NCBI GenBank assembly: GCA_963787125.1
Contig: CAWBBV010000001.1
Coordinates: 416,001 to 480,000 of the forward strand
DNA length: 64,000 bases
Source: an uncultured delta proteobacterium
GTDB lineage: Bacteria; Desulfobacterota; Desulfuromonadia; Geobacterales; DSM-12255
Reading direction: 5' to 3'
Shown here: positions 1 through 13,302 of the stretch, piece by piece
Position numbering within the stretch: position 1 is the stretch's first letter
How the letters are laid out: every line of letters starts with the position of its first letter
Position numbers and translations under genes: made by a program
Notes under the pieces: generated by a model
What the model was told of the DNA's origin: nothing
Databases searched by the model: none
What the model saw: only the letters and a program-made list of their open reading frames with translations

Positions 1-832
1 AACACACAGCGTTGTCTGGATCATCGGAGTTGGCGGCATCGTCACCGGCCGGCGCAGACTGCTGAGCTATTTCAGTGAGCGAAACAGGGCTGAAAAAGAG
101 AAGCTGGCGCTGGAGTTGCGTCTACAGCAGGGGCAGAAACTGGAAAGCCTGGGTGTATTGGCCGGCGGGATCGCCCATGATTTTAACAACATCCTGGCAA
201 CGATCATCGGCCACTGCGGTATTTTGCAGCTCAGGCCGGAAAAGGTTGCGAAATGTGTCCCGGAGATCGAGAGCGCTGCCGAGCGTGCCGCGGCACTCTG
301 CCGTCAGATGCTGGCCTATGCCGGCAAGAGCCAAACTGTTATGTCCCGGTTCGATATGACAATTCTGGTGGCTGAGATGGTTGCAATGCTGAAAGCGACC
401 ACCCCGCAGAATGTGGTCATTAACACAAATCTTGCGACTGATGTTTTGCTGGTTAAAGGCGATAGTGAACAGTTCAGGCAGATTATCATCAATCTGCTCA
501 CGAATGCTGCCGAGGCGATCGGTGCAGCAGAGGGAGAGATACGGGTATCACTGACAAAAACAGAAATAATGGCAGGAGATTTGGTTAAGGATCATCTTGG
601 CAGGATCATTCCGGCGGGTAGCTATGCCTGTCTTGAGGTAACTGACACCGGCTGCGGCATGGATGCTGAAACCAGCAGCAGGATTTTCGAACCATTTTAC
701 ACCACCAGGTTTTTTGGCCGCGGCCTGGGGTTGCCCGCGACTCTCGGCATCATTACCGCCCATAAGGGGGCGGTGCAGCTACACAGTCAGCCGGGACAGG
801 GAACGACGGTCAAGGTCTTTCTGCCCGTATAG
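1..832 (+). CDS. Membrane-bound sensor histidine kinase, 5'-truncated by the window edge (HisKA + HATPase)
   Basis: Frame is open from nt 2 (THSVVWIIGVGGI, hydrophobic). H-box AGGIAHDFNNIL, N-box NLLTNA, G-boxes DTGCGM and GRGLGL. Confidence 0.9.
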   Translation, partial: THSVVWIIGVGGIVTGRRRLLSYFSERNRAEKEKLALELRLQQGQKLESLGVLAGGIAHDFNNILATIIGHCGILQLRPEKVAKCVPEIESAAERAAALCRQMLAYAGKSQTVMSRFDMTILVAEMVAMLKATTPQNVVINTNLATDVLLVKGDSEQFRQIIINLLTNAAEAIGAAEGEIRVSLTKTEIMAGDLVKDHLGRIIPAGSYACLEVTDTGCGMDAETSSRIFEPFYTTRFFGRGLGLPATLGIITAHKGAVQLHSQPGQGTTVKVFLPV

Positions 833-854
833 ACCAGTAAACGCCCGCCGTGAT

Positions 855-2438
855 TCAGCCTGCCAATACCGCTCTGATTTTTATCGCCAGATCGCTGATG
901 GAGCACGGTTTCTGGATAAATTGCACCCCTTCTTCCAGCACCCCATGATGGGCGATGACGTCGGCTGTATAGCCTGAGGTGAAAAGGCACTTCATCGCCG
1001 CTCTGGTTGGTCTCAGCTTCTCAGCCAGCGTTCTGCCGTTCATCCCCGGCATCACCACATCAGTTATCAGCAGGTGTATCTCGCCGGGGTGCTCAGCGCA
1101 AAGGTGGATCGCTTTGTCCGGGGAGTCGGCTGCCAGCACCTGATACTCGAGCATTTCCAGAATCTCACAGGTCATCTGTAACAGCGACGGTTCGTCCTCC
1201 ACCAGTAGAACTGTCTCACCACAGCTTTTTGGGACCGCTCTTGAAGCTGTTTCCTCTGCGGCGGGAACCTGCCCCGGATGCCGCGGCAGGTAAATTCTGA
1301 AGGTTGTCCCCTGTCCCGGCTCGCTGTAGACATTGATGAAGCCGTTGTTCTGCTTGACGATGCCGTACACCGTGGCAAGTCCGAGGCCAGTACCTTGTCC
1401 AACCTCTTTAGTGGTAAAGAACGGTTCAAAAATCTTTTCCTGTGTCTCCTTGTCCATGCCACAGCCGGAATCGCTTATGGCAAGCATTACATACTCTCCC
1501 GGAACAAGTTCAGCATGCTTTGCGCAGTCAGCCTCGTTAAAAACAGTATTACCTGTCTCGATAATGAGTTTGCCGACATCAGGAATGGCATCGCGGGCGT
1601 TGACACAGAGATTGGCAAGGATCTGATCTTCCTGGGAAGGATCCAGCTTGACCGGCCAGAGGCCCGCTCCGGGCAGCCAGGTGAGCTCGATGTTTTCACC
1701 GATCAGACGCCGGAGGATTTTCAGCATCGCTTCCACGGTCTCGTTCAGATCAAGTACCTTGGGGACAACTGTCTGTTTTCTGGCAAAAGCCAGCAACTGT
1801 CTGGTGATGCCGGCTGCCCGTTCGGCAGCGTTACTTATGCCGCGCAGCTCTTTTTGCAGCGGGTGATCCGGCGCAATTTTCCGCGTGGCCAGATCGACAT
1901 TCCCCAGAATCACTCCAAGCATATTATTGAAGTCGTGGGCCACACCACCGGCAAGCCGGCCGATTGATTCCATCTTTTGCGCCTGAATAAGCTTGGCTTC
2001 GAGCAAGGCCTTCTCTTCCTCTGCCAACCGGTGTGCAGTCCGCTCCTTGACTTCACTGAGCGCCCGCTCAATCACCATCGAAAGCTTGTCGAGCCGCTCC
2101 TTGGGGAGGTAGTCAGTCGCCCCCTCTTTCAGGAGCTGCACCGCTTTTTCTTCACCAATAGCGCCGGAAACACAGATGAACGGTACTCCGGGGCAGAGCG
2201 ACTTCGTCAGCCGCAGCGCCTCCGTACCCTCGATACCGGGAAGGTGGAAGTCGGCAAGAACCAGGTCGTAGCCGCCGCTATGCAAAAATGCGGTAAACTG
2301 CTGCTCGTTGGCAGCCCAGTCAAGCTGGCAAGAAAAGCCGGCGTCGGTCAGCCGCTCCCTGATAATTTCCGCGTCAAGCGGTGAATCTTCAAGATGCAGA
2401 ATCTTCAGCGAGTTGAGGGCGTCAGTTTCAGCGATCAT
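855..2438 (-). CDS. Hybrid response regulator/histidine kinase (REC-HisKA-HATPase-REC)
   Basis: N-terminal REC (LHLEDSPLD...LADF), [15 protein letters not shown]-terminal REC (LLVEDE...ITDVVMP). ATG at 2438 overlaps the upstream stop. Confidence 0.93.
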
Positions 2439-2886
2439 GCGTTGAACCCCCTTGTGGCGGCAGTTCATTCAGCACGGCCCAGAAAACGCCGACATGCCTC
2501 ACCGCCTCGACAAATTCCGAGAATTTGACCGGTTTGACCACATAGGCATTGACCCCCAGATCGTAACTGCGGATCAGATCATGCTCTTCCCGTGAAGAAG
2601 TCAGCATCACCACCGGGATCATTTTCAGCGTTTCATCAGTACGAATTGCCCGCAGAACATCGATGCCGTCCATGCGCGGCATTTTGATGTCCAGAATCAC
2701 CACTGCCGGGTTGCCGGGCTTGCGTCCGCTGTATTTCCCTTCGCAGCGCAGATACTCCATCGCCTCCACGCCGTCCTTGACGTGGGTGACCAGATTGGCC
2801 AGGTTGTTATCGGCCAGGGCCTCCAGAGTCAGTTCGACATCACTGGGGTTGTCTTCTGCAAACAGAATCGGTTTCAGTTCAGTCAT
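2428..2886 (-). CDS. Single-domain response regulator (Rcp1-like)
   Basis: [31 protein letters not shown] motif. Confidence 0.93.
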
Positions 2887-5800
2887 GGTTTTCTCCTTGT
2901 ATTTTAGGCAATGTGAAGTAAAAACTGGCCCCGCGGTTCAGTTCGGCCTCAGCCCAGATCCGGCCACCATGACGGGCAACGATCCGCTGGACGGTGGCCA
3001 GACCGATACCGGTCCCCTCAAATTCTTCCAGTGTGTGCAGCCGCTGAAAGACGCCAAAGAGTTTGTCGACGTACTTCATATCAAAGCCGACGCCGTTATC
3101 GGCAACGGTGAAGACAATTTCACCGTTCTCCTCGCGGGCGCTGACCTCAATGCGGGCAGACTCTTTTGTCCGGGTATATTTAACCGCATTATCCAGAAGG
3201 TTGACCCAGACCTGGCGAAGCAGGGCGTAATCGCCCCGGACAGACGGCAACTCCCCGATGACCCATTCGATGGCGCGATCTGAATGACTCGCTTTTAGCG
3301 GCGTCAGCACTTCCTGCAGTGACTGGTTCATGTCCAGAGCTTGCCGCCGCATTTCCGCCCGTCCGGTGCGGGAAAACTGCAGCAGGTCGTCAATCAGCAC
3401 CCCCATCTGGCGAGCGGCAGAAGCAATGGTGTCCAGATAGTGCAGCCCTTTATCGCTGAGACCGGCGCGGCAGCGGGAAATCAGCAGCTCCACATAACCG
3501 TCAATATGCCGCAAGGGGGCGCGCAGATCGTGGGAGACGGAGTAGCAAAACGCTTCCAGCTCCTTGTTGGCAGTTTCCAGCTGACCTGTTCGCTCGATAA
3601 CCCGTTTTTCCAGTTCGGCGTTCAAACGGTGGATTTCTGTCTCGGCTTTTTTCCGTTCGCTAATTTCTGCCTTGAGTGATTCGTTGGCAACTTCCAGCTC
3701 TTCCGTTCGCTCTTTTACCCGATGCTCCACCTCGTCATAGGCTTTTTGCAATTCTCCCTGGGTGCGCTCCAGCTTCTCCTTCTCCCGTTGCAGTTCAGTG
3801 TTGACCAGTTGCAGCTGCTGAGGACTGGGGATAGAGAGGAGCCTGGGGAGTACGGGCCAGACAACGATTGCTGTTGCCAGTGAAACCAGGGCAGTGAGAG
3901 TGTCTACGGCTGCCTGCCACCAGTCAACCGGCCACCAGAGACCGACCACATGGACAAGATGGGTCGTACCGCAGGCAAGAATGAAAAGTCCGAAGAGGAC
4001 AATAATCCAGGAAAACGGCAGGTCTTTCCGTTTTCTGACAAACACCACCAGGAAAAAGGGGATGGTCGCGTAGGAGACGGCGATCAAAGCATTGGCAATG
4101 GCCATGGTCATCATCAGAAGCGGGGGCATGGTACCGGCCTTTGCTCCCTGGATTTCCATGGTGCCCGGCATGAAGACCATCGGCGCTATAATGAGAATAG
4201 CCAGAGCGGCTGCCGGGGCGATGACTCTCGGCACAAGTTCCAGCGTTTGCCTTAAAAGAGATTTGGGCGGGGCAAAGGTCTGCACTTTGTAAGCCCGTAA
4301 GCGGAGGCTGTTGGTCACCACGAAAATCGAGCTGAACGCCATGGCTCCGGCAGCGAACATCGGGATGAGCAGGCCATAGGCAGCAACCGGGATGAGGGCA
4401 ATGTTGTAGAACAGGGCCCAGATCAGATTCTGGACAATGGTCTGGGATGTTGCCCGGGAGAGTGAAATAGCCCGGCCGACGCCGGCGAGATCACCGCTGA
4501 TAAGGGTGATGCCGGCAGCGGCCATGGCTATGTCGGTACCGGTGCCGATGGCAATGCCGACATCAGCCTGAGCCAGTGCCGGAGCATCATTGATGCCGTC
4601 ACCGACCATCGCCACGGTAGGCCGGGCAAAATTGCCAAGGCTGCTCACAGCCTGTAACTGTTTTATCGCTTCGGCTTTTTCGCCGGGCAATACTTCGGCC
4701 ACGACCCGGGTTATCCCGACCTGAGCGGCGATCGCGTCAGCAGTGCTCTGGTTGTCACCGGTCAGCATGACAATGTCGAGACCAAGTTGGCGTAGATCGG
4801 CAATTGCTTCCCTGGCGCCCGGTTTCACCGTGTCTGCAACTGCGATCAACCCTATCGGCCTGGCAGGTTCATTGCCCTCCACCCGGCTGACGGCGACGAT
4901 CATGGCGGTCTTGCCTTCGGCTTGCAGTCTCATGATGTCAGTCTGCAGCTTATCTACAGCGATCCCTTCATTTTGCATCATCCGCGGATTGCCGATGATC
5001 ACGGCTGTATCCGCCACTATCGCCCTGATGCCAAAACCGCCGAAAGCACGGAACTGTTCCGGAGAGCCAAGCGCCAAACCCTTATCCTGTCCGGCCTTGA
5101 CGATGCAGCGCCCTAATGGATGTTCCGAGCCAAGTTCAGCGCTGGCCGCCAGGCGGAGAACTTCGTCGGCAGGCAGATCATGGGTAGGGATAATATCGGT
5201 AAGAGCCGGTTCTCCCCGGGTGATGGTGCCGGTTTTATCAAATACAACGATATTGACGCGGCCGGCCCGTTCGAGGATTTCGCTGCTTTTGAAGAGAATC
5301 CCGCTTTGAGCCCCTCTGGAGGTGCCGACCATGATGGCAGTCGGTGTTGCCAGGCCGATGGCGCAGGGGCAGGCGATAACGAGAACCGCAATGGCATTTA
5401 TCATCGCACCGGTCCAGGGGATATGGACGACATAAAGCCAGCCGAAGAAGGTAGCCAGGGCAATAGCGATGATGATCGGCACGAAATATTTGCCGATTTC
5501 GTCGGTCAGCTTCTGGATAGGTGCTTTGCTCCCCTGGGCTTCCTGCACCAGTTTTGCTATCTGTGCCAGGGTACTGTTCTTGCCGACCTTGGTGGCTTCG
5601 AATCTGATCAAGCCTTCGCGGTTGATCGTAGCGCCGATGACTTCATCGCCGGGACCTTTGCTGACAGGCATCGACTCACCGGTGATCATTGCTTCATCAA
5701 AGGCCGAGCGGCCTTCACTGATGATGCCGTCAACAGGGACTTTTTCGCCGGGGCGGACGACCACGCTATCGCCGACCAGAACCTGTTCAACGCTGATCAC

Positions 5801-6715
5801 AGTTTCAACGCCGTTCCGCACTACGCAGGCTGTCTTGGCGCGCAGTCCCATCAACGCCTTCAAGGCCGCCGATGTTTTACCTTTAGCGCGGGTTTCCAGG
5901 TATTTGCCGAGCTTGATGAGAGTGATGATGGCCGCGCCGGTTTCGTAATAAACATTGGGACTGCTGATGATGCCGATGGTAACGAGCAGGCTGGAAAAAT
6001 AGGCGGCCGAAGAGCCCATGGCGATGAGCACATCCATGTTGGCACTACCGAAACGGAGGCTCTTCCAGGCGCCGACGTAAAATTGCCAGCCGACGATAAA
6101 TTGGACGACAGTCGCCGCCAGGAGCATGATAACTTGATCGTATTTAAAAGCGACGCTGATAAAGTCCCGCGCCATGCTGAAGATGATGAGCGGTATCGTA
6201 AAAATGAGCCCGATTATCAGTAAACGCCCCTGTTTTTCCAGTTCGGCGGCGCGCAGTTGAGCTTCTACGTCTTCTACCTCTTCGGATTCACCCGCCTGGA
6301 CAAGATCAAAGCCGGCGCTGCGGATGATTGCGGCCAGTTCGGCAACCGAGGTCACGCCGGGGATATACTCAAGCGCTGCCCGCTCGACACCGTAGCTGAC
6401 AGTGGCGACAAGGACTCCGTTTTGCTTGGCCAGGAGTTTTTCCAGCGTCAAGGCATCGGTATGATCCTGTAACCCGGTAATCGGCAGAGTTATCTTGCCG
6501 GTGGCAACGGCATAGCCGATCTTTTTGACATGGGCAATGATATCGGTTTCGCTCAGCTGGAGCGGGTCAAAACTGATATTCAGTTTTTCACTGGCAAAAT
6601 CGACACTCGCGTCGCTAATACCCGGCAATTTACGCAGATTAGACTCGATTCTCAGGGCGCAGTTGGCACAGGTCATGCCGGTAACAGGCATGGTGGTGCT
6701 CTCGGAAGGGGTCAT
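2879..6715 (-). CDS. Fusion: Cu(I)-translocating P1B-type ATPase + ethylene-receptor (ETR1-type) membrane sensor domain + histidine kinase
   Basis: ATPase: GMTCANC, TGES, CPC(449-451), DKTGT(D493), SEHP, GDGIND, YN, MAFSS. Sensor: [12 protein letters not shown]...FILACGTTH...TALVSLATA. Kinase: [11 protein letters not shown](H1062), NLLDNA, DNGVGF, GTGIGL. One uninterrupted ORF with RBS GAGG. Confidence 0.92.
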
Positions 6716-6752
6716 TCTTACCTCTTGAAATTTCTATGGTGCAGCAAATTAT

Positions 6753-8864
6753 TTAAGCCGTCAGGTGAACTGCGTCACTCCCCAGCAACTCATGCACCTT
6801 GGTCGCCAGAGCCTGTAACGTGTAAGGTTTCTGAATGAAATGCACCCCTGTATCCAGCACGCCATTGTGGGCGATTATGTCGGCCGTATATCCCGACATG
6901 AACAGACATTTCATTTCAGGCCTGAGCGGGCGGATTTTTTCGGCCAGATCCCGACCGTTCATGCCCGGCATCACCACGTCGGTCATCAGCAGGTGAATCA
7001 CCCCCGGATGTTCTGTTGCAATCCGGAGTGCCTCGAACGGGCTGTTTGCGGGTAGTACTACATAGTTATTAAATTCCAGAATCTCCCTGGTCATTTCCAG
7101 GAGTGTCGGCTCATCCTCAACTAAAAGCACAATCTCGCCGTGTCCCATGGCGGCTTCTGCTGCAGCCGGTTCCAAGAGCGTTGCGCCATGGACAGTATGC
7201 CTGGGCAGATAGATGTTGAACGTCGTTCCCTGTCCCGGCTCGCTATAGACATTTATAAAGCCTTTGTTCTGCTTGACGGCGCCATAAACCGTGGCGAGTC
7301 CCAGGCCGGTTCCCTTGCCGGTCTCCTTGGTAGTAAAAAATGGTTCGAAGATATGGGCCAGTGTTTCCCTGTCCATACCGTAGCCGTTGTCGCCGACAGT
7401 CAGCCGCACATACTCTCCGGGGACAAAGTCCGGGTCCTGGGGGGTGTAAAACTGGTCGAAGCTGCTGTTGCCGGTTTCAATGATAATCTTGCCGACGCCG
7501 GAGATCGCATCCCTGGCATTAACACAGAGATTGGCAAGGATCTGATCGATCTGGGACGGATCTGCCATCACCGGCCAGAGCTTTGCGGCCGGCTGCCAAC
7601 TGAGTTGAATGTCTTCGCCGATAAGTCGCTGCAGCATTTTGAGTGTGCTTGCTACCGCGTCATTCAGATCGAGATTTTTCGGGACAATGGTTTGTTTGCG
7701 GGCAAAGGCCAGCAGTTGCCGGGTGAGGTCGGCGGAGTGTCTGGCGGCGGTGCGGATTTCTTCCAGGTCAGCACGCAGAGGCTGGGACGGCTCCAGCTTC
7801 ATTAGCGCCAGATCAGCACGGCCTATAATGACAGTCAGCATGTTGTTGAAGTCATGGGCAACTCCGCCTGCCAATCGACCCACTGATTCCATTTTCTGCG
7901 CCTGCAGCAGCTGGGATTCGAGTTTAGTCCTCTCCTCCTCGGCACGTTTGCGTGCGGTGATATCCTGGATGAAAGCCACTATCTGTCCGTTTTCATCTGA
8001 GCGGTACTGGGCGCTGACTTCGACGTCAAAAACGGTGCCATCCTTGCGGCGCTGCCGCGATTCAAAGCGATCCGCTCCCCGTTCCCTGACTAAGCGGATG
8101 TGAGCAGCTGTTCCTTCGGGCGACTCTTCAATTTCGATATCACTGATACTCATGGACAACAGCTCTGCCATGCTGTAGCCGCTCATCCGGCAATAGGTCA
8201 TATTGACCTCGATAAAGTGCCCCTGGGTGTCTACCAGCCAGATTCCATCCATGGCTGTCTGCAGGATAGTCCGGTGGTGTTCTTCGCTCTTGCGAAGTTC
8301 AGCGGTACGCTCCTCCACCCGCTGCTCCAGTTTCTGCGACTGTTGCTCAATCTGCCGAAAGGCGAGCGAGTTTTTGAGCGCCAGGGTGATCGGCGGGGCA
8401 AGCAGAGTGATGATCCGGTCTGTTTCGCCAATCCGCTCCAATTCCGGCAGATCGAAGAGTAGCAGCATGCCGACCAGTTCACCACCCACCCGCAACGGAT
8501 AGCGTGCCATTGACTTGATGCCGGCCCGCAACAGCTGGCTACGCAAAGGATGATTCAGAGTCAGCTCTTCCGGATAAAACGGTAGCGCTTCGGGACTTGT
8601 TTCAGGACAAAACGTATTCAGTTCAAGTGGGGAAAAGAGCGTGGCTCGCCTTGCCGGGCTGACATTCAACAGTTCGTCTGTTTCAGTTTCTGCGTGGTGG
8701 GCAATAACCATAACTGTTCTGGCTCCGGTCAGTTCGCGCAGATGTTCTGTCAACGCCACGCCCAGTTCATACGGTGAGGTGGAAACCAGCAGTTGCGAGA
8801 TCACCTCGATGGCCATCAACTGGGCAGCAGGTGAGAACTTCTGTTCGTTTTCAAATGCTTTCAT
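6753..8864 (-). CDS. Hybrid sensor histidine kinase (GAF-like, PAS, HisKA, HATPase, REC)
   Basis: N-terminal GAF-like fold ([15 protein letters not shown]), PAS ([10 protein letters not shown]...RRKDGT), AHDFNNML, C-terminal REC. ATG at 8864 forms an ATGA overlap with the DUF1638 stop. Confidence 0.9.
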
Positions 8865-9469
8865 GGCGTCTCCCCGGCAACCCTGCAAAATTTTGCCTCG
8901 GCTCGGGCTGCCAGCAGTGCTGTCAGCATACTGTCCAGTGTTACCGTTTCAACCCGCCAGGGGAGCCCGCTGTAGGTCGAAAATTCTGTCAGCTGCAGTT
9001 CAGGAACCGGCAGCAGGCCGGTATCAAGATATACCAGCACCCTCCGGTTTTCTCCCATGAGCCCCTGCGCAACCTCTTTGTTCAGCCCCAGTTCGCTCTT
9101 CATGATATATTCCCAGCGCCGGGCCCATTCCGGCAGAACCAGAAAGGCCTCTTCACGCATCAGTTGGCGATAGCGATCCCGTCCCAGCAGCAGCTGCGCA
9201 CAGTTGATAACATTGACCCGACCCACCTGAAAACGGCGCACCAGGTCGAGCATCCGGGCGGTGCAATCGCCATAGACGAGCACCAGGCAGCCGGTCTCGT
9301 CAGTTCTCTCAGTAAGCGCTGTGTGCAGCTTCGCTTCGAGTTTCGGGGGGTCCATATGCAGCATAGAGTCGAGAAAAAGCAGTTTGCCGCCGATAAGCCG
9401 GCGGCGGTGCAGCTCCTCCATCTCTGCCCGTACTACGCCGCAACTGAGCCAGACAGTACGCTCCGTCAC
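8861..9469 (-). CDS. DUF1638-family protein
   Basis: SCGVVRAE, LDSMLHMDPPKL, VYGDC, NCAQLLLG pattern. GTG at 9469 forms a GTGA overlap with the upstream stop. Confidence 0.75.
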   Translation of the reverse strand: MTERTVWLSCGVVRAEMEELHRRRLIGGKLLFLDSMLHMDPPKLEAKLHTALTERTDETGCLVLVYGDCTARMLDLVRRFQVGRVNVINCAQLLLGRDRYRQLMREEAFLVLPEWARRWEYIMKSELGLNKEVAQGLMGENRRVLVYLDTGLLPVPELQLTEFSTYSGLPWRVETVTLDSMLTALLAARAEAKFCRVAGETP

Positions 9470-10500
9470 TTCCCGCACCCCATCTCCCCGGAATAGTCGG
9501 CAGCGGCAGCCTGCATGGCGCGCAGATTTCCGGGTGGCGTTGCCTGTGGCATATCGGCGCCTGCATTGGCCAGAATGTAGTGCCCGGAAGGCGCAGCCGT
9601 CCGCAGGCATGCCATGCTCAGCGCATACACCTGTTCGGGAGTGGCCGTCGGCATGGTCAGATTGTCCAGGTTGCCGATAATGGTCAGGTCAGGCCCAAGT
9701 AACTGTCTGGCTTCGGCCAGATCATCCTTTGAACCGGCAATAATCCCGACCAGGCCGTCTGTTCCGGGGAGCAGGTCAAGGACGTGATTCATGCGGCCGC
9801 CGGTGCTGCTGATGACTTTGGGGCCATTTATCCGGGTAAAAACAGCCTGGAGGTGCGGCAGGAACTGATCGACAAAGATGCTGCGCGGGGCTACTGCCGA
9901 CGTTGCCATCCCTTCGGTAATGACCAGGCAGTCGGCGCCCGCGTCAAGCAGGGCATTAGCCCAGGCGATTAAAAATGGCGACGTATACTCCAGCAGGCTC
10001 TGAGCCAGCTCTTTATCAAAGAGGACCGCTTCCATCCACTGTTCAATGCCGACAAGCAGAGACGGGAGAATGCCGGGTCCGGGAAGAACGCTGATGATCG
10101 GCGCTTGCCCCTTGTACAGCTCCGCCAGCTGCCGGTTTGTCTCAAGTATCATGGGCAGACGACCGGTGCATAGGATATCCGGAAGCGGTAATGAAAGGGC
10201 GTCAACAGCCTTTCTCGCTGCCGGTCGTTTCATGTTGGGAACCTGATCAGCAGACCAGGCCACCTCGCCCCCAAACGCTTCCGCAATGGCGCTGTAGTCA
10301 AAAGCAGTCATCACCAGATCAAAGCCGAACTCCTTTTGGAGCGCTTTTTGACCGGCCACGTAGGCGGTTGCATCGCTGTACAGAGTCCGCAAATCGGTGT
10401 TTGTCAGCTTGCCACCGTAAGCGCCGAGAACGGCAAAGACCGGCAACCTGTCAACCGGTTGCCCGGAAAGAGTATTCATGACCCGTTGATATGAATTCAT
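9466..10500 (-). CDS. UroD/MtaA-CmuA family methyltransferase-fold protein
   Basis: PVDRLPV start, AEAFGGEV, IIGNLD, TPPGNLRAM end. Adjacent to a corrinoid protein; no HemE RQAGR motif. Confidence 0.85.
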   Translation of the reverse strand: MNSYQRVMNTLSGQPVDRLPVFAVLGAYGGKLTNTDLRTLYSDATAYVAGQKALQKEFGFDLVMTAFDYSAIAEAFGGEVAWSADQVPNMKRPAARKAVDALSLPLPDILCTGRLPMILETNRQLAELYKGQAPIISVLPGPGILPSLLVGIEQWMEAVLFDKELAQSLLEYTSPFLIAWANALLDAGADCLVITEGMATSAVAPRSIFVDQFLPHLQAVFTRINGPKVISSTGGRMNHVLDLLPGTDGLVGIIAGSKDDLAEARQLLGPDLTIIGNLDNLTMPTATPEQVYALSMACLRTAAPSGHYILANAGADMPQATPPGNLRAMQAAAADYSGEMGCGK

Positions 10501-11165
10501 GATAGCACCTCTTGCCGGGCTTCACGCTGTAGCCGCATGAAAAGTTCATCGGCGGCAACGGCATTATGGGCGCTGCCATCACCACCTACTTCCGCCACCA
10601 GCTCCGGACGCCAGTTGAAGACTGCACCGCCGACCGCCAATTTAATCCGGCCACTTAATCCTCTGGCGTTGATCAGTTCACGCAGTTTGCAGATGTTCAG
10701 GGCAGTGGTCTGCATCATGGCAGAAGCGCCGATCACACAGGCATTGACCTCAAGCGCCTTTTCCAGAAACTGCTCGGCCGGCACGTCATTGCCCAGGTCG
10801 TAAACATCCCAGCCTGCTGCAGCCAGAAAGAGACCCACGGTTTTGCGGCCAAGACTGTGAAAATCATCCTCGATGTTGCCGATCACAACTGCGCCTTTGC
10901 TGTGACGGTCAGAACTATTATCCGGGACACAGCGAAGCAGAGTGTCTTCCGCAATTTTTGAGGCAACAAAGTTCTGCGCTAACGACATGGTCTCTTCTTC
11001 CCACATCTTGCCGAGTTCGATGATAGCCGGGTCGAGGATACTTTCAATGACCTGCACGGAATCAAGCCCTGTGGCAAGCGCGTTTTCAATAATCCCTTTA
11101 GCACCGGCGCGATCAGCATTTATCATGGCGGTAAGCAACTGTTCACTGAAATCGGCAGGCTTCAT
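10497..11165 (-). CDS. Cobalamin (corrinoid)-binding protein (cap domain + B12-binding Rossmann domain)
   Basis: DFHSLG (DxHxxG), DLGNDVP, GASAMM, AVGGA. RBS AGGAG. Confidence 0.92.
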   Translation of the reverse strand: MKPADFSEQLLTAMINADRAGAKGIIENALATGLDSVQVIESILDPAIIELGKMWEEETMSLAQNFVASKIAEDTLLRCVPDNSSDRHSKGAVVIGNIEDDFHSLGRKTVGLFLAAAGWDVYDLGNDVPAEQFLEKALEVNACVIGASAMMQTTALNICKLRELINARGLSGRIKLAVGGAVFNWRPELVAEVGGDGSAHNAVAADELFMRLQREARQEVLS

Positions 11166-11356
11166 ACGGCAGACTCCTTAATCTAAGGGAAGAAATAATG
11201 GTTAATCTTGTTCGTCTTTAATCTTAGCAATTTTTTTTTAAAATGTAAGAAGTATTGCTTAACTTTACCCGCTAGATCCATTTTAGTCATTACAATGCCT
11301 GAGGCGAACGGCAAGCAGGCATACTGTTTTATTTACTCCGCATTTCATGCTATTGT

Positions 11357-12544
11357 TTGCGATATTTCTTACAGGAGACCATTGTGCGCACATTATTCTG
11401 CTGTCTGTTTGCCTGGCTGTTTTTTACAGTTTTGCATGTATCTGCTGAAGAGGCGGTGCCGCTTGCTGAAAAAGAGGGCAAATGGTCTTTTTCCATGAGT
11501 GACGATAGTAAAGTCCTGAGCAAGGAGCGCTTTAAAAAGCAGCAGAACTCGCTGCGGGATATCTCCGCCATTATCACTGCATCAGCGGCGATGAATCCTC
11601 CCAAAGGGTTCGAAGCCAGATTCTGGGGGTCAGTCACCGCCAAAGACAGATATGATGCGTGCAGCGGGAAAAAATGTCCGCCGTCACGGCCGACTGCCAC
11701 TCTGGCAATGATGCTGGGCCGCTATGAAGAGAACAACGGCAAGGTCAAAGCGGCCTTTAACACACCAGCAACAATGGATATTTCCATCAACAACCTGGGG
11801 CACCTCTTTGCCAACCTTCCCGTCCTTTTCAAAGATGCGGAAGGGTATCTGCTGCCGGAACCAAAGCCGGACGGTGAGCGTGCCGGGATGCGTACCTACG
11901 CGAACAATGGCCATGCCGTTGCTGTCATGACCAGCAATGACAAACCTCTGTGGCAACCTGTCAGCCGGGAAAGATACCTGAAAGCCGCCATTGCAGCTGC
12001 AGCTAAAAGTGCGGGGATGCCGCCGAAGCCGGTTAAAAAGGGTAAAAAGCAGAAGGCTGTCGAGATCAGCGGCAATCCGGTGATGATAGAAGAGAGCAGG
12101 AGCTGGATCGATCCGGCCGAGGAGAAGCGGTGGGTAGAAAGCAGCCGCTCACTTGCCTTTGAGATGAAGGAGTCGGTTGAGGTGCTGCAAGCCAGGTTGC
12201 AAAAGCTTCAGGCTGAGCTCGAGGCAATGCCGGCGGAACAAAGGAAAATGCCGGCAAGAGTGGAGTTCATCACCGCTGCCGATGGGGAAAGCGCGTCACT
12301 CCTGGCTGCTGACAGCAGCGCAGGGGTTGCTGTTGTAACCCCTGATTTCAGATACTTCAACCAGAAGCTGCCATTTGAGGTAATTCAACTTCTGGTTGTC
12401 CAATGGAAATTTGAGGGTAATCAGCTTTATGACCCTGACAAGCCAGGCATTACCGAAACCCTTAACAATAAAAAACTCCTGGAAACCTACAAGAGTATGG
12501 ATTGGCAGAAACTGCGCAGCAAGGTCACTCGAACTGGGCCTTGA
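11357..12544 (+). CDS. Hypothetical exported protein
   Basis: 395-aa ORF with an N-terminal hydrophobic signal-like segment; no recognised motif. Confidence 0.7.
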   Translation: MRYFLQETIVRTLFCCLFAWLFFTVLHVSAEEAVPLAEKEGKWSFSMSDDSKVLSKERFKKQQNSLRDISAIITASAAMNPPKGFEARFWGSVTAKDRYDACSGKKCPPSRPTATLAMMLGRYEENNGKVKAAFNTPATMDISINNLGHLFANLPVLFKDAEGYLLPEPKPDGERAGMRTYANNGHAVAVMTSNDKPLWQPVSRERYLKAAIAAAAKSAGMPPKPVKKGKKQKAVEISGNPVMIEESRSWIDPAEEKRWVESSRSLAFEMKESVEVLQARLQKLQAELEAMPAEQRKMPARVEFITAADGESASLLAADSSAGVAVVTPDFRYFNQKLPFEVIQLLVVQWKFEGNQLYDPDKPGITETLNNKKLLETYKSMDWQKLRSKVTRTGP

Positions 12545-13178
12545 ACGCCTCCATGGTCTCCTTTAAAAGAGCAACTTCATCTTTCAGGGCCGCAACCTCT
12601 GCCTCCAGCGCTGCCATTCGTTCATCTTCAGCCATGACCTTTACCCTGGCAGCTTCAGGAGAAGCTTGCCGCTCCTGAAGCTGCAACTTTGGCTCTCCGG
12701 AAAGCAGATGGGCATAGCGCTGCTCTTTTTGACCCGGCTGACGGGGCAGCAGCATCACCAGTTGCAGTTCAAACTTCTGCAGATCGTTCAACACTTCTTC
12801 AACTGCCGCTATATCAGCGAAAGCTGACATCCGCTCGCATCTCGTCCGCAGCTCACCCAGCGTCTGCGGCCCGCGGAGCAGCAGCTCGGCAATGACTGCC
12901 AGCTCCGGCGGCGGCAGTTTTTCCCCCAGTGAGTGACAATATTTCGGGACTCGCCCGCTTTCTCCGGACAGCCTGGCAAAGCCTTTCATCCGGAGTTTGT
13001 CGAGTCCGCGGACAACATCCTCATCCTGGAGCGTCATGGTCGGCTCACGGTTCGATTTCTGGTTACAGGCGTTTGTAAGCGCATTAAGCGTCAGCGGATA
13101 GTATTCCGGGGTGGTCAACTCTTTTTCTATCAGTGCTCCGAGGATCCGCGCCTCTACCTCGTTAATCGGCATAGTCAT
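12525..13178 (-). CDS. YceH/DUF480 family protein
   Basis: EARILGALIEKELTTPEYYPLTLNALTNACNQKSNREP, LLLRGPQT. Start chosen from the GGAGA RBS. Confidence 0.9.
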   Translation of the reverse strand: MTMPINEVEARILGALIEKELTTPEYYPLTLNALTNACNQKSNREPTMTLQDEDVVRGLDKLRMKGFARLSGESGRVPKYCHSLGEKLPPPELAVIAELLLRGPQTLGELRTRCERMSAFADIAAVEEVLNDLQKFELQLVMLLPRQPGQKEQRYAHLLSGEPKLQLQERQASPEAARVKVMAEDERMAALEAEVAALKDEVALLKETMEAFKAQFE

Positions 13179-13302
13179 AGGTGTCTCCATGATTAATGTT
13201 GTCGTTACCGCAGAATTCGTATATTCTGTCTTACTTTGCTGAGAGTCAACAGATTTTCTCGGCAACGGCTATAGCCGAATTAAACAAAGAAAGGTGAAAC
13301 AA

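Follow-up and report, generated by a model that had tools for sequence, protein, structure and literature searches.

In plants, the ethylene receptor ETR1 needs Cu(I) and the copper ATPase RAN1 (HMA7) is held to supply it; the available sections of two papers (PMC6656775, PMC12586476) link both proteins through genetic evidence and protein interaction, and the latter presents the copper route to the receptor as still debated between lumenal hand-over and hand-over by cytosolic chaperones and the metal-binding domain. Two bacterial receptors, AzoEtr1 of Azospirillum brasilense and SynEtr1 of Synechocystis, combine an N-terminal ethylene-binding domain (EBD) with a histidine kinase and an overlapping small regulator gene, without any pump; in the case of AzoEtr1, the section of PMC11819568 on its locus describes a gene for a single-domain regulator of 135 amino acids (aa) that overlaps the receptor stop codon. 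Here we describe a bacterial gene in which counterparts of both plant proteins are joined. It lies at positions 2879..6715, on the minus strand, of a stretch of 64,000 nucleotides (hereafter the window; contig CAWBBV010000001.1 of assembly GCA_963787125.1, positions 416,001 to 480,000) from an uncultured delta proteobacterium, and encodes a protein of 1278 aa in which a predicted P1B-1 Cu(I) ATPase precedes an ETR1-type EBD and a histidine kinase.

The fused gene (P0001) opens with an ATG preceded by a Shine-Dalgarno-like AGAGG, and the 1278 codons form a continuous frame without stop or frameshift, as seen in the list of open reading frames (ORFs), the translation and the Pfam and NCBIfam matches. 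A preliminary description of this DNA, made from the letters alone, had reported a single ORF here without giving its strand; the ORF is borne out, on the minus strand, and each of the motif residues then named lies at its assigned position, from CANC at residue 16 to SHDLR at 1061 with H1062. Pfam recognizes HMA (in two stretches), E1-E2_ATPase, Hydrolase, ETR1_N, HisKA and HATPase_c in this order, and the full succession of parts is an HMA domain, a second HMA-like domain, the P1B-1 ATPase, an extra membrane helix (TM9), a Met-rich loop, the EBD, a coiled coil, HisKA and HATPase. Like RAN1 and ETR1 taken together, the protein unites an HMA-bearing P1B-1 pump with a three-helix Cys/His Cu(I) domain and a histidine-kinase-type transmitter; unlike them, it is one polypeptide, with the extra helix and the Met-rich loop between the modules, and would reside in the bacterial inner membrane instead of the endoplasmic reticulum. 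Compared with ETR1, it has Asn for Asp25, Asp for Lys91 and a third His, and the member in the window lacks a GAF domain. AzoEtr1 and SynEtr1 carry the pair Asp/Lys in a domain located at the N-terminus, whereas in the window protein nine helices come first and the pair is Asn/Asp.

Judging from its relatives, the fusion is in all probability a real natural gene. A word-indexed search with residues 790-1000 returned 526 proteins at E<=1e-3 among 7593 candidates, and the best 120 of these 526 together with the window protein form a family alignment of 121 rows, every one of which displays ATPase residues upstream of the sensor domain (121/121); DKTGT and CPC are both present in 113/121, and the other eight rows are N-terminally cut ORFs with the M6 motif. 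A scan of one genome per prokaryote species gave 28 loci, and in 23 of these a single frame carries both the ATPase motifs and the sensor match; one of the 23 ORFs extends beyond the end of its contig, and the other 22 are complete and measure 1231-2451 aa. Among the remaining five, L005 has its 5' end cut and keeps GDGxND, L026 begins inside the sensor domain, and three are unfused ordinary forms, from Trinickia, a Rhodospirillales metagenome-assembled genome (MAG) and Candidatus Acidoferrum. Homologues spanning the junction are found outside the source genome on no fewer than 23 genome contigs from four phyla (Bacteroidota, Thermodesulfobacteriota, Acidobacteriota and Verrucomicrobiota), and the architecture is widespread and not unique to the window. 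The labels of the carriers include Bacteroidales, Prolixibacteraceae, Rikenellaceae, Geobacter sp., Desulfuromonadales, Syntrophobacter, Deltaproteobacteria, Bryobacteraceae, Acidobacteriota, Holophagales and Verrucomicrobiae. The nearest named relative is a Geobacter sp. MAG with a 1278-aa ORF, whose identity to the window protein is 87% both in the junction region and in the ATPase core, which makes the anaerobic host named in the preliminary description plausible; a genome of the same genus as that of the window holds an open frame of 1286 aa. The GC content is unremarkable, with 0.53-0.575 over the fused gene against 0.49-0.61 in the flanks, and the GC profile gives no compositional trace of recent transfer. 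All of these results speak against an assembly chimera or a read-through of two genes and, because independent fused homologues are so many, this explanation is very unlikely and receives almost no weight from us. Profiles, Foldseek and the occurrence of the junction in four phyla instead uphold the earlier proposal of a genuine Rosetta-stone fusion between a RAN1-like pump and an ETR1-like domain and kinase.

In order to place the fused pumps among their relatives, a quick maximum-likelihood tree with a midpoint root was built from the ATPase cores of 24 fused rows (the window protein and the 23 genome loci) and nine stand-alone P1B pumps (five of the same genomes); L045 was left out, its longest ORF not being the ATPase. 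The 24 fused cores lie on one side of a branch with an SH-aLRT support of 99 and the nine stand-alone pumps on the other, and a group made up of the window, Geobacter and Desulfuromonadales rows (support 98) branches from within the Bacteroidota rows. This pattern fits a single origin of the fusion, which would afterwards have reached largely uncultured bacteria in four phyla by horizontal transfer; no donor phylum is claimed, because of the midpoint root, the quick search and the long stand-alone branches. In two sets of 301 genomes, which are samples and not censuses, the fusion is unevenly represented. Within the class of the window genome, PF25487, the Pfam family of the EBD, occurs in 28 genomes with only three frames of fusion length (1284, 1286 and 1423 aa), the remaining ones measuring 103-918 aa, and in the order of one Bacteroidota carrier (G001) seven genomes have PF25487 above the cut-off, six of them in frames of fusion length (1282-1663 aa) and the seventh at a contig edge, so that all six complete frames are of fusion length. 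The fusion is rare among Geobacter relatives, where unfused sensors are common.

By motifs, profile and fold, the pump half is a complete P1B-1 Cu(I) ATPase, for which transport is predicted. It starts with an HMA domain (aa 9-68; 6512..6691, on the minus strand as is every part of this gene; Pfam HMA 7.6e-19), whose Cu(I) site C16-x-x-C19 is kept as CxxC in 24/24 fused rows, and continues with a degenerate HMA-like domain lacking the Cys pair (aa ~75-140; 6296..6493; the second Pfam HMA stretch), the motif of which is Cys-free in 22/22 rows having the segment, two Acidobacteriota rows missing it altogether. The core (aa 150-812; 4280..6268), assigned through its motifs and TIGR01511, comprises MA, MB, M1-M6 and the A, P and N domains. 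In the P1B classification, Cu(I) selectivity is marked by CPC in M4, YN in M5 and MxxSS in M6, and this signature is complete in the window protein (C449PC, Y770N and M792AFSS), which in addition to CANC 16 displays TGES 345, DKTGT 493, HP 532 and GDGIND 705. Across the family the catalytic motifs are retained in 114/121 (DKTGT), 113/121 (CPC) and 119/121 rows (GDGxND), and among the 24 fused rows the mean pairwise identity is 0.72 for the ATPase core and 0.76 for the pump helices. Pfam covers the core with E1-E2_ATPase (aa 291-470, 1.1e-58) and the HAD-type Hydrolase (aa 488-718, 1.9e-36), while NCBIfam TIGR01511 scores 565.9 bits over residues 209-807 (cut-off 397) and TIGR01525 622.2 bits (cut-off 346.25). 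The equivalog model of E. coli CopA, NF007952, stays at 553.7, under its cut-off of 1316, and the protein is therefore a member of the P1B-1 family and not an equivalog of E. coli CopA.

A structure model of aa 151-1010, computed from a 54-row alignment, is of moderate quality (mean pLDDT 67.8, pTM 0.54) and was used for helix counts and the match to the CopA fold only, not for the packing of sensor and pump. Its top PDB matches in Foldseek are 7r0g_A (E 1.5e-46, 44% identity), 4bbj, 3rfu_A and ATP7B, and the Cu(I) pumps are matched at 39-44% identity and E values of 1e-41 to 1e-46 (42-44% and 1e-42 to 1e-46 for 7r0g, 4bbj and 3rfu), with TM-scores of just 0.38-0.52, the model being moderate and its domains posed differently. 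Fold and motifs are thus common to the fused pump and to stand-alone pumps, both CopA (Legionella CopA, 3rfu/4bbj) and CopA2/CcoI. CcoI is a pump dedicated to loading a client, the cbb3 oxidase. In contrast to CopA, the fusion carries a client in the same chain, which as far as our searches show occurs only there, and the fused pumps form a clade of their own.

The sensor domain (aa 867-962; 3830..4117) consists of three helices and matches the Pfam profile PF25487 (ETR1_N) from position 2 to 97 of 97 with an E value of 1.6e-31 and 108.9 bits, against a gathering score of 27; in a scan of the whole genome it reached 115.5 bits. The gap-free alignment to ETR1 previously made by eye for aa ~870-960 is backed by this profile, with three helices instead of the two then proposed. 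In the model the helices span aa 865-895, 902-924 and 932-959 (pLDDT about 40-68), and the search of the PDB with aa 801-965 gave 0 sequence matches at E<=1, no experimental structure of an EBD being found. The landmarks of the domain are N875, Y882, I885, P886, I912, C915, H919, H922, D938, TALVSLATA at 941 and LLSIPSP at 959. With a mean pairwise identity of 0.77 the domain is the most conserved of all regions in the 24 fused rows, a set picked through the junction region, which inflates the values of sensor and linker. An exhaustive HMMER search with aa 856-970 against 1.84 billion cluster representatives matched 7199 of them at E<=1e-3, 4298 at E<=1e-10 and 35 at E<=1e-30; past this last threshold the scores level off in a plateau formed by proteins of ~50% identity, whose domain lies at residues ~24-129. 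The sets compared below are 35 fused-type and 115 classical representatives, the domain starting at ~residues 24-30 in the latter and at aa 867, after nine helices, in the window protein. Ethylene binding by ETR1 involves seven residues, which we take to be D25, Y32, I35, P36, I62, C65 and H69, and six of these seven are present in the window protein, the Asp25 equivalent being Asn875. A count of seven conserved amino acids for ethylene binding is also given in passages of PMC11819568 and PMC6944256. Y882, I885, P886, I912, C915 and H919 are conserved in fused-type and classical sets alike, and in the two columns of the copper ligands Cys is found in 35/35 and His in 33/35 fused-type representatives, both being present in 115/115 classical ones.

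Pump and sensor are joined by a further helix and a Met-rich loop. Since a P1B pump ends in the cytoplasm whereas helix 1 of the EBD begins on the outside, the extra helices have to be odd in number, and a hydropathy segment at 824-856 accommodates one, TM9 (aa ~828-852; 4160..4234), which the model shows as a helix at aa 820-848 (model residues 670-698). Through TM9, in which P834, L841, P845 and M849 are invariant in the 121 rows, the chain passes from the end of M6 in the cytoplasm to the outside of the membrane. The predicted total is 8 + 1 + 3 = 12 helices, which leaves the RKRK894-897 loop on the inner side and puts coiled coil and kinase in the cytoplasm. Tallies of Met residues delimit a Met-rich outer loop that runs into the start of sensor helix 1 (aa 849-871; 4103..4171) and contains M849, M852, M856, M863, M868, M869 and M871; a span of 28 residues holds 6-7 Met in 24/24 fused rows, and at columns 863/868/869/871 Met is found in 24-28 of the 35 fused-type representatives, where the 115 classical ones have mostly W/L/W/H. 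The outer loops measure at most 14 residues (aa 853-866 and 925-931), and the linker of 54 residues has a mean identity of 0.59 in the 24 fused rows, a value biased upwards by their selection via the junction. Within their helices, C915, H919, N875 and D938 are placed towards the outer end, on the membrane side to which the pump discharges Cu(I), and the Met ladder likewise begins on that side, at the outer end of sensor helix 1. A complex prediction of the pump (aa 150-815) with aa 822-972 gave a score of 0.00 (mark 0.32) and, run without controls, is uninformative either way.

Based on these features, we propose that the 12-helix protein both exports Cu(I) as a pump and acts as a sensor histidine kinase dependent on Cu(I). 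By analogy with their families, the N-terminal CxxC HMA domain would take up cytoplasmic Cu(I), and the P1B-1 core would move it over the membrane via CPC, YN and MxxSS with phosphorylation of D493. The ninth helix would then reach the outer face, where the Met-rich loop M849-M871 may receive the released Cu(I) and pass it to C915 and H919, with H922 nearby, in the outer leaflet, the receptor being in this way loaded in cis. The Cu(I) site could bind a small unsaturated ligand, for which ethylene is the leading candidate, and the signal would reach H1062 by way of sensor helix 3 and the coiled coil; from H1062, phosphate might pass to a translationally coupled single-domain regulator and a hybrid-kinase relay. 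A self-loading Cu(I) sensor kinase for ethylene or a similar small ligand is the interpretation that we favour, and we hold it to be somewhat probable; that ethylene itself is the ligand is, overall, a plausible proposition falling short of probable. The most specific version, a natural RAN1-ETR1 fusion with hand-over of Cu(I) along a Met ladder on the trans side and a fast-off sensor of ethylene or alkenes in anoxic habitats, is put forward tentatively.

The fusion of a pump gene with a receptor gene is a classic genomic sign of two proteins that act together physically, and the fixed topology with its Met-rich loop suggests a specific, mutable copper route. This topology fits the trans-side route for copper and, if the trans-side version were true, it would settle how ethylene receptors obtain their copper and would make ethylene-type gas sensing an old and widespread bacterial sense beyond plant-associated and photosynthetic lineages. 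With the distribution described above, the range of ethylene-type sensors comes to include Bacteroidota, Acidobacteriota, Verrucomicrobiota and Geobacter relatives, and a self-loading bacterial protein could be a practical target for cryo-EM and biosensor design.

Several observations weigh against the self-loading ethylene sensor, and the first of them concern the surroundings of the copper site. Column 875 (Asp25) is Asn in 33/35 fused-type representatives, compared with Asp in 99/115 and Asn in 15/115 classical ones; column 938 (Lys91) is Asp in 35/35, compared with Lys in 99/115 and Asp in 11/115; and column 922 is His in 34/35 and variable in the classical set. Such a second shell is unlike that of every receptor shown to bind ethylene, and the extra His922 could fill the coordination sphere of Cu(I). 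The equivalence to ETR1 Asp25 and Lys91 (codons at window positions 4091-4093 for N875 and 3902-3904 for D938) rests on the numbering of AzoEtr1, where D35, C75, H79 and K98 correspond to D25, C65, H69 and K91 of ETR1 (PMC11819568, in the section giving this numbering), together with the identical spacing of 40, 4 and 19 in Asp35-Cys75-His79-Lys98 and N875-C915-H919-D938, and not on a direct alignment to the plant protein. Of the ETR1-type site claimed in the preliminary description, C915/H919 and Y882/I885/P886 are indeed in place; since Asn and Asp stand in for Asp25 and Lys91 and a His is added, the sensor is, as far as its residues tell, a distinct sub-type with an altered and fixed second shell rather than a plain ETR1 site. 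According to passages of PMC10266040, 1,221 ETR1-like sequences have Asp at position 25 in 93.55% of cases and Asn in 3.67%, Asp25 and Lys91 are strongly coupled in evolution, ETR1 with Asp25Asn is a functional receptor whose off-rate is at least 100-fold faster, which counts in favour of our interpretation, and loss of the basic character of Lys91 brings ethylene binding by ETR1 down to 1-6%, a further point against ethylene; those passages contain no discussion of an Asn/Asp pairing at 25/91. In our classical set the pair 875/938 covaries (D-K in 97/115, N-D in 11/115), which supports the published Asp25-Lys91 contact independently, at the level of alignment columns, and the N-D combination is by the same token a second, charge-shifted state of the pair that appears fixed in the fused clade. 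The Asn875/Asp938 pair would predict faster and weaker binding than in plant ETR1. To the points against are added the moderate model, without reliable packing of sensor and pump, the fact that all named carriers are MAGs, and the quick, midpoint-rooted tree with several long stand-alone branches.

The same second shell bears on the nature of the ligand. A self-loading Cu(I) sensor could instead respond to something other than ethylene, such as acetylene, other alkenes, CO, sulfide or organosulfur compounds, and this version would agree with the constancy of the altered residues, since C915, H919, N875, D938 and H922 stand in 121/121 family rows and the Asn/Asp/His combination at 875/938/922 in 32/35 representatives. 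It would also agree with the comparison, drawn in a passage of PMC10266040, of the ETR1 site with a Cu(I)-containing olfactory receptor for organosulfur odorants, and with carrier labels such as Geobacter and Syntrophobacter, which suggest anoxic habitats. However, the members of the domain family reported as tested in the available part of PMC11819568 (ETR1, SynEtr1 and AzoEtr1) all bind ethylene, and the Asn variant of ETR1 is described in PMC10266040, in the passage devoted to it, as still ethylene-responsive. We regard a non-ethylene ligand as unlikely.

The copper household of the carriers raises a different explanation, the main alternative to the one we favour, in which no gas is involved: pump discharge would fill the Met loop and the Cys/His/His site, and the kinase would report copper load or turnover. 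The window genome (G000; 4.21 Mb, 99.96% complete) has no match to TIGR01511 above the cut-off other than the fused gene, which also holds the only HMA domain found, the other P-type ATPases being two type-II pumps and KdpB; CsoR was not found there, and the three MerR-type matches to CueR all stay under the cut-off. Within the scope of the search, which did not extend to Cus-type efflux and multicopper oxidases, the copper toolkit of this genome thus appears minimal, and the fused pump may be the housekeeping exporter because it is the sole P1B Cu ATPase there. These facts weigh against the favoured interpretation and are what would be expected of a copper-status or flux sensor, as are the additions specific to the clade, His922 and a Met cluster, both of a kind usual in Cu(I) ligands, and the alteration of both the Asp25 and the Lys91 equivalents. 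Genes for other putative copper-handling proteins stand directly upstream of the fusion in 4/23 loci: in three Bacteroidales loci it is preceded on the same strand by an HMA-DsbD_2 membrane protein (L004:4323-5363, L021:1106-2134 and L022:4105-5172), and in L017 by a DsbD_2 and cupredoxin gene (L017:4028-5248). These DsbD_2 proteins may be another copper-handling partner, and their position would suit a copper-status sensor too. On the other hand, neither genes of the cus, cue or copZ type nor a DNA-binding regulator adjoin the fusion in the 23 loci or in the window. Separate P1B-1 pumps are encoded in 5/5 other carrier genomes searched (at least one each above the cut-off, in frames of about 695-770 aa), the fused pump usually being an extra paralogue as judged by these profile matches. 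Arrays of PAS and GAF domains between sensor and kinase in most members have the appearance of multi-input signalling, and six of the seven residues that we associate with ethylene binding stay conserved. A sensor of copper status alone is, on balance, rather unlikely.

Copper is part of the signal in CusS and CopS as well, which like the fused protein are membrane histidine kinases. CusS and CopS sense Cu by a periplasmic domain between two helices. The window protein, in contrast, has short outer loops and its metal site inside the membrane, and Pfam finds no match to a periplasmic sensor domain of the CusS/CopS type in it.

The kinase half follows the sensor directly. A long helix with a charged, heptad-like sequence forms the coiled-coil linker (aa 963-1050; 3566..3829) and extends in the model from aa 965 to the model end at aa 1009; unlike most family members, the window protein has no PAS or GAF domain in this region. 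HisKA (aa 1055-1116; 3368..3553; Pfam 9.9e-12) contains SHDLR at 1061 with H1062, and HATPase_c (aa 1161-1271; 2903..3235; Pfam 1.1e-25) keeps its boxes intact (N, NLLDNAVKY 1172; G1, DNGVGF 1206; G2, GTGIGL 1234), bearing out the HisKA/HATPase module and its predicted phospho-acceptor His as first described. With its coiled coil running straight into the kinase, the window member is the shortest complete version; in the family the tail after the sensor is highly variable: it may be missing (proteins of about 1030-1215 aa with no kinase domain listed) or comprise several PAS/GAF domains, HisKA or HisKA_2 and receivers, and the longest proteins reach 2082 aa among the best 120 of 526 homologues and 2451 aa in locus L013.

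Downstream of the fused gene, also on the minus strand, lies a gene for a single-domain response regulator of 152 aa (2428..2886; Pfam Response_reg 4.9e-20), whose ATG still lies within the fused gene, 8 nt from its end, and for which an AAGGAG motif is found inside the 3' end of the same gene, an arrangement similar to the overlapping regulator gene of AzoEtr1. It is followed by a hybrid kinase of 537 aa with the Pfam architecture REC-HisKA-HATPase-REC (855..2468, minus strand), which overlaps the end of the regulator gene. Comparable partners recur elsewhere: in the 20 of 23 related fused loci with downstream sequence, a small REC gene occurs within three ORFs downstream in nine (L007, L008, L009, L011, L014, L018, L019, L020 and L022), in five of which it is followed by a REC-PAS-HK-REC hybrid (L007, L008, L011, L014 and L020), and in L012 and L013 such a hybrid stands directly downstream of the fusion. 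A REC and/or hybrid-kinase partner is therefore present in 11/20 loci, the remaining nine having unrelated or unannotated neighbours. Upstream, a PAS-HisKA-HATPase-REC hybrid kinase of 711 aa (6753..8888, minus strand; Pfam) ends 37 nt before the fused gene, and its position suggests a tie between the two.

These partners bear on the converse possibility, namely that sensor and kinase regulate the ATPase and that the fusion serves the control of copper export. The covalent link and the conserved linker would suit such a signal-gated pump, yet the kinase has a conserved external partner gene, the variable PAS/GAF/REC tails point to outward signalling, and derivatives without a pump keep sensor and kinase (P0140, P0149 and P0151); we consider this explanation highly improbable. 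As regards such derivatives, the M6 motif region (AGAM.FSS-type) is found just upstream of the domain in 25 of the 35 fused-type representatives, and P0135 has DKTGT and CPC further upstream. P0126 and P0140 are variants derived from the pump, the former with an internal deletion from M4 to the linker helix. P0140 (734 aa) is composed of HMA, linker helix, fused-type sensor, PAS and kinase without an ATPase core, P0149 (1415 aa) begins at the linker helix, and in P0148 and P0151 an HMA stub of 35 residues is joined to the sensor domain. Altogether 13 fused-type representatives, including fragments, the two HMA-stub forms and five proteins in which the domain is preceded only by an N-terminal hydrophobic stretch of their own (P0143, P0145, P0147, P0152 and P0153), have no ATPase sequence in the available upstream stretch. 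This may point to an ancestor with four helices, for which the fusion would have posed little topological difficulty. The cut-down derivatives may show, as experiments made by nature, which portion of the pump is needed by the sensor, or they may be artefacts of gene calling or assembly.

Each module of the protein comes from a known family, and it is the combination that appears new. A search of 8.1 million open-access papers and 0.36 million preprints, with key architecture reviews lying outside, returned no description of a bacterial fusion between a P-type ATPase and an EBD; the word 'ATPase' is absent from the main text of PMC11819568, PMC10266040, PMC7700396 and PMC6682694, and 'fused' and 'bacteria' are absent from PMC12586476. 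The initial statement that no account of this architecture was known is consistent with this open-access literature, the reviews most likely to list bacterial architectures falling outside it. In the source databases the family proteins are named just 'heavy metal translocating P-type ATPase' or 'Cu+-exporting ATPase'.

With respect to the surroundings of the locus, positions 1-11500 of the window contain 10 sites resembling promoters, where 5.1 +/- 2.6 would be expected, and 11 resembling terminators, where the expectation is 11.1, so that neither count yields a usable signal. Three genes at 8861-11165 on the minus strand lie just upstream of the cluster of kinase genes, namely a DUF1638 gene, a URO-D/MtaA-like gene and a gene with a B12-binding domain, which together look like a set for a corrinoid-dependent methyltransferase. 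Further on, a 395-aa ORF without a Pfam match (11357-12544, plus strand) adjoins a DUF480 gene (12525-13265, minus strand). In the syntenic locus L007 of the Geobacter MAG, which is without the corrinoid-type genes, this pair recurs, a DUF480 gene and a 390-aa protein of unknown family standing directly beside the fusion.

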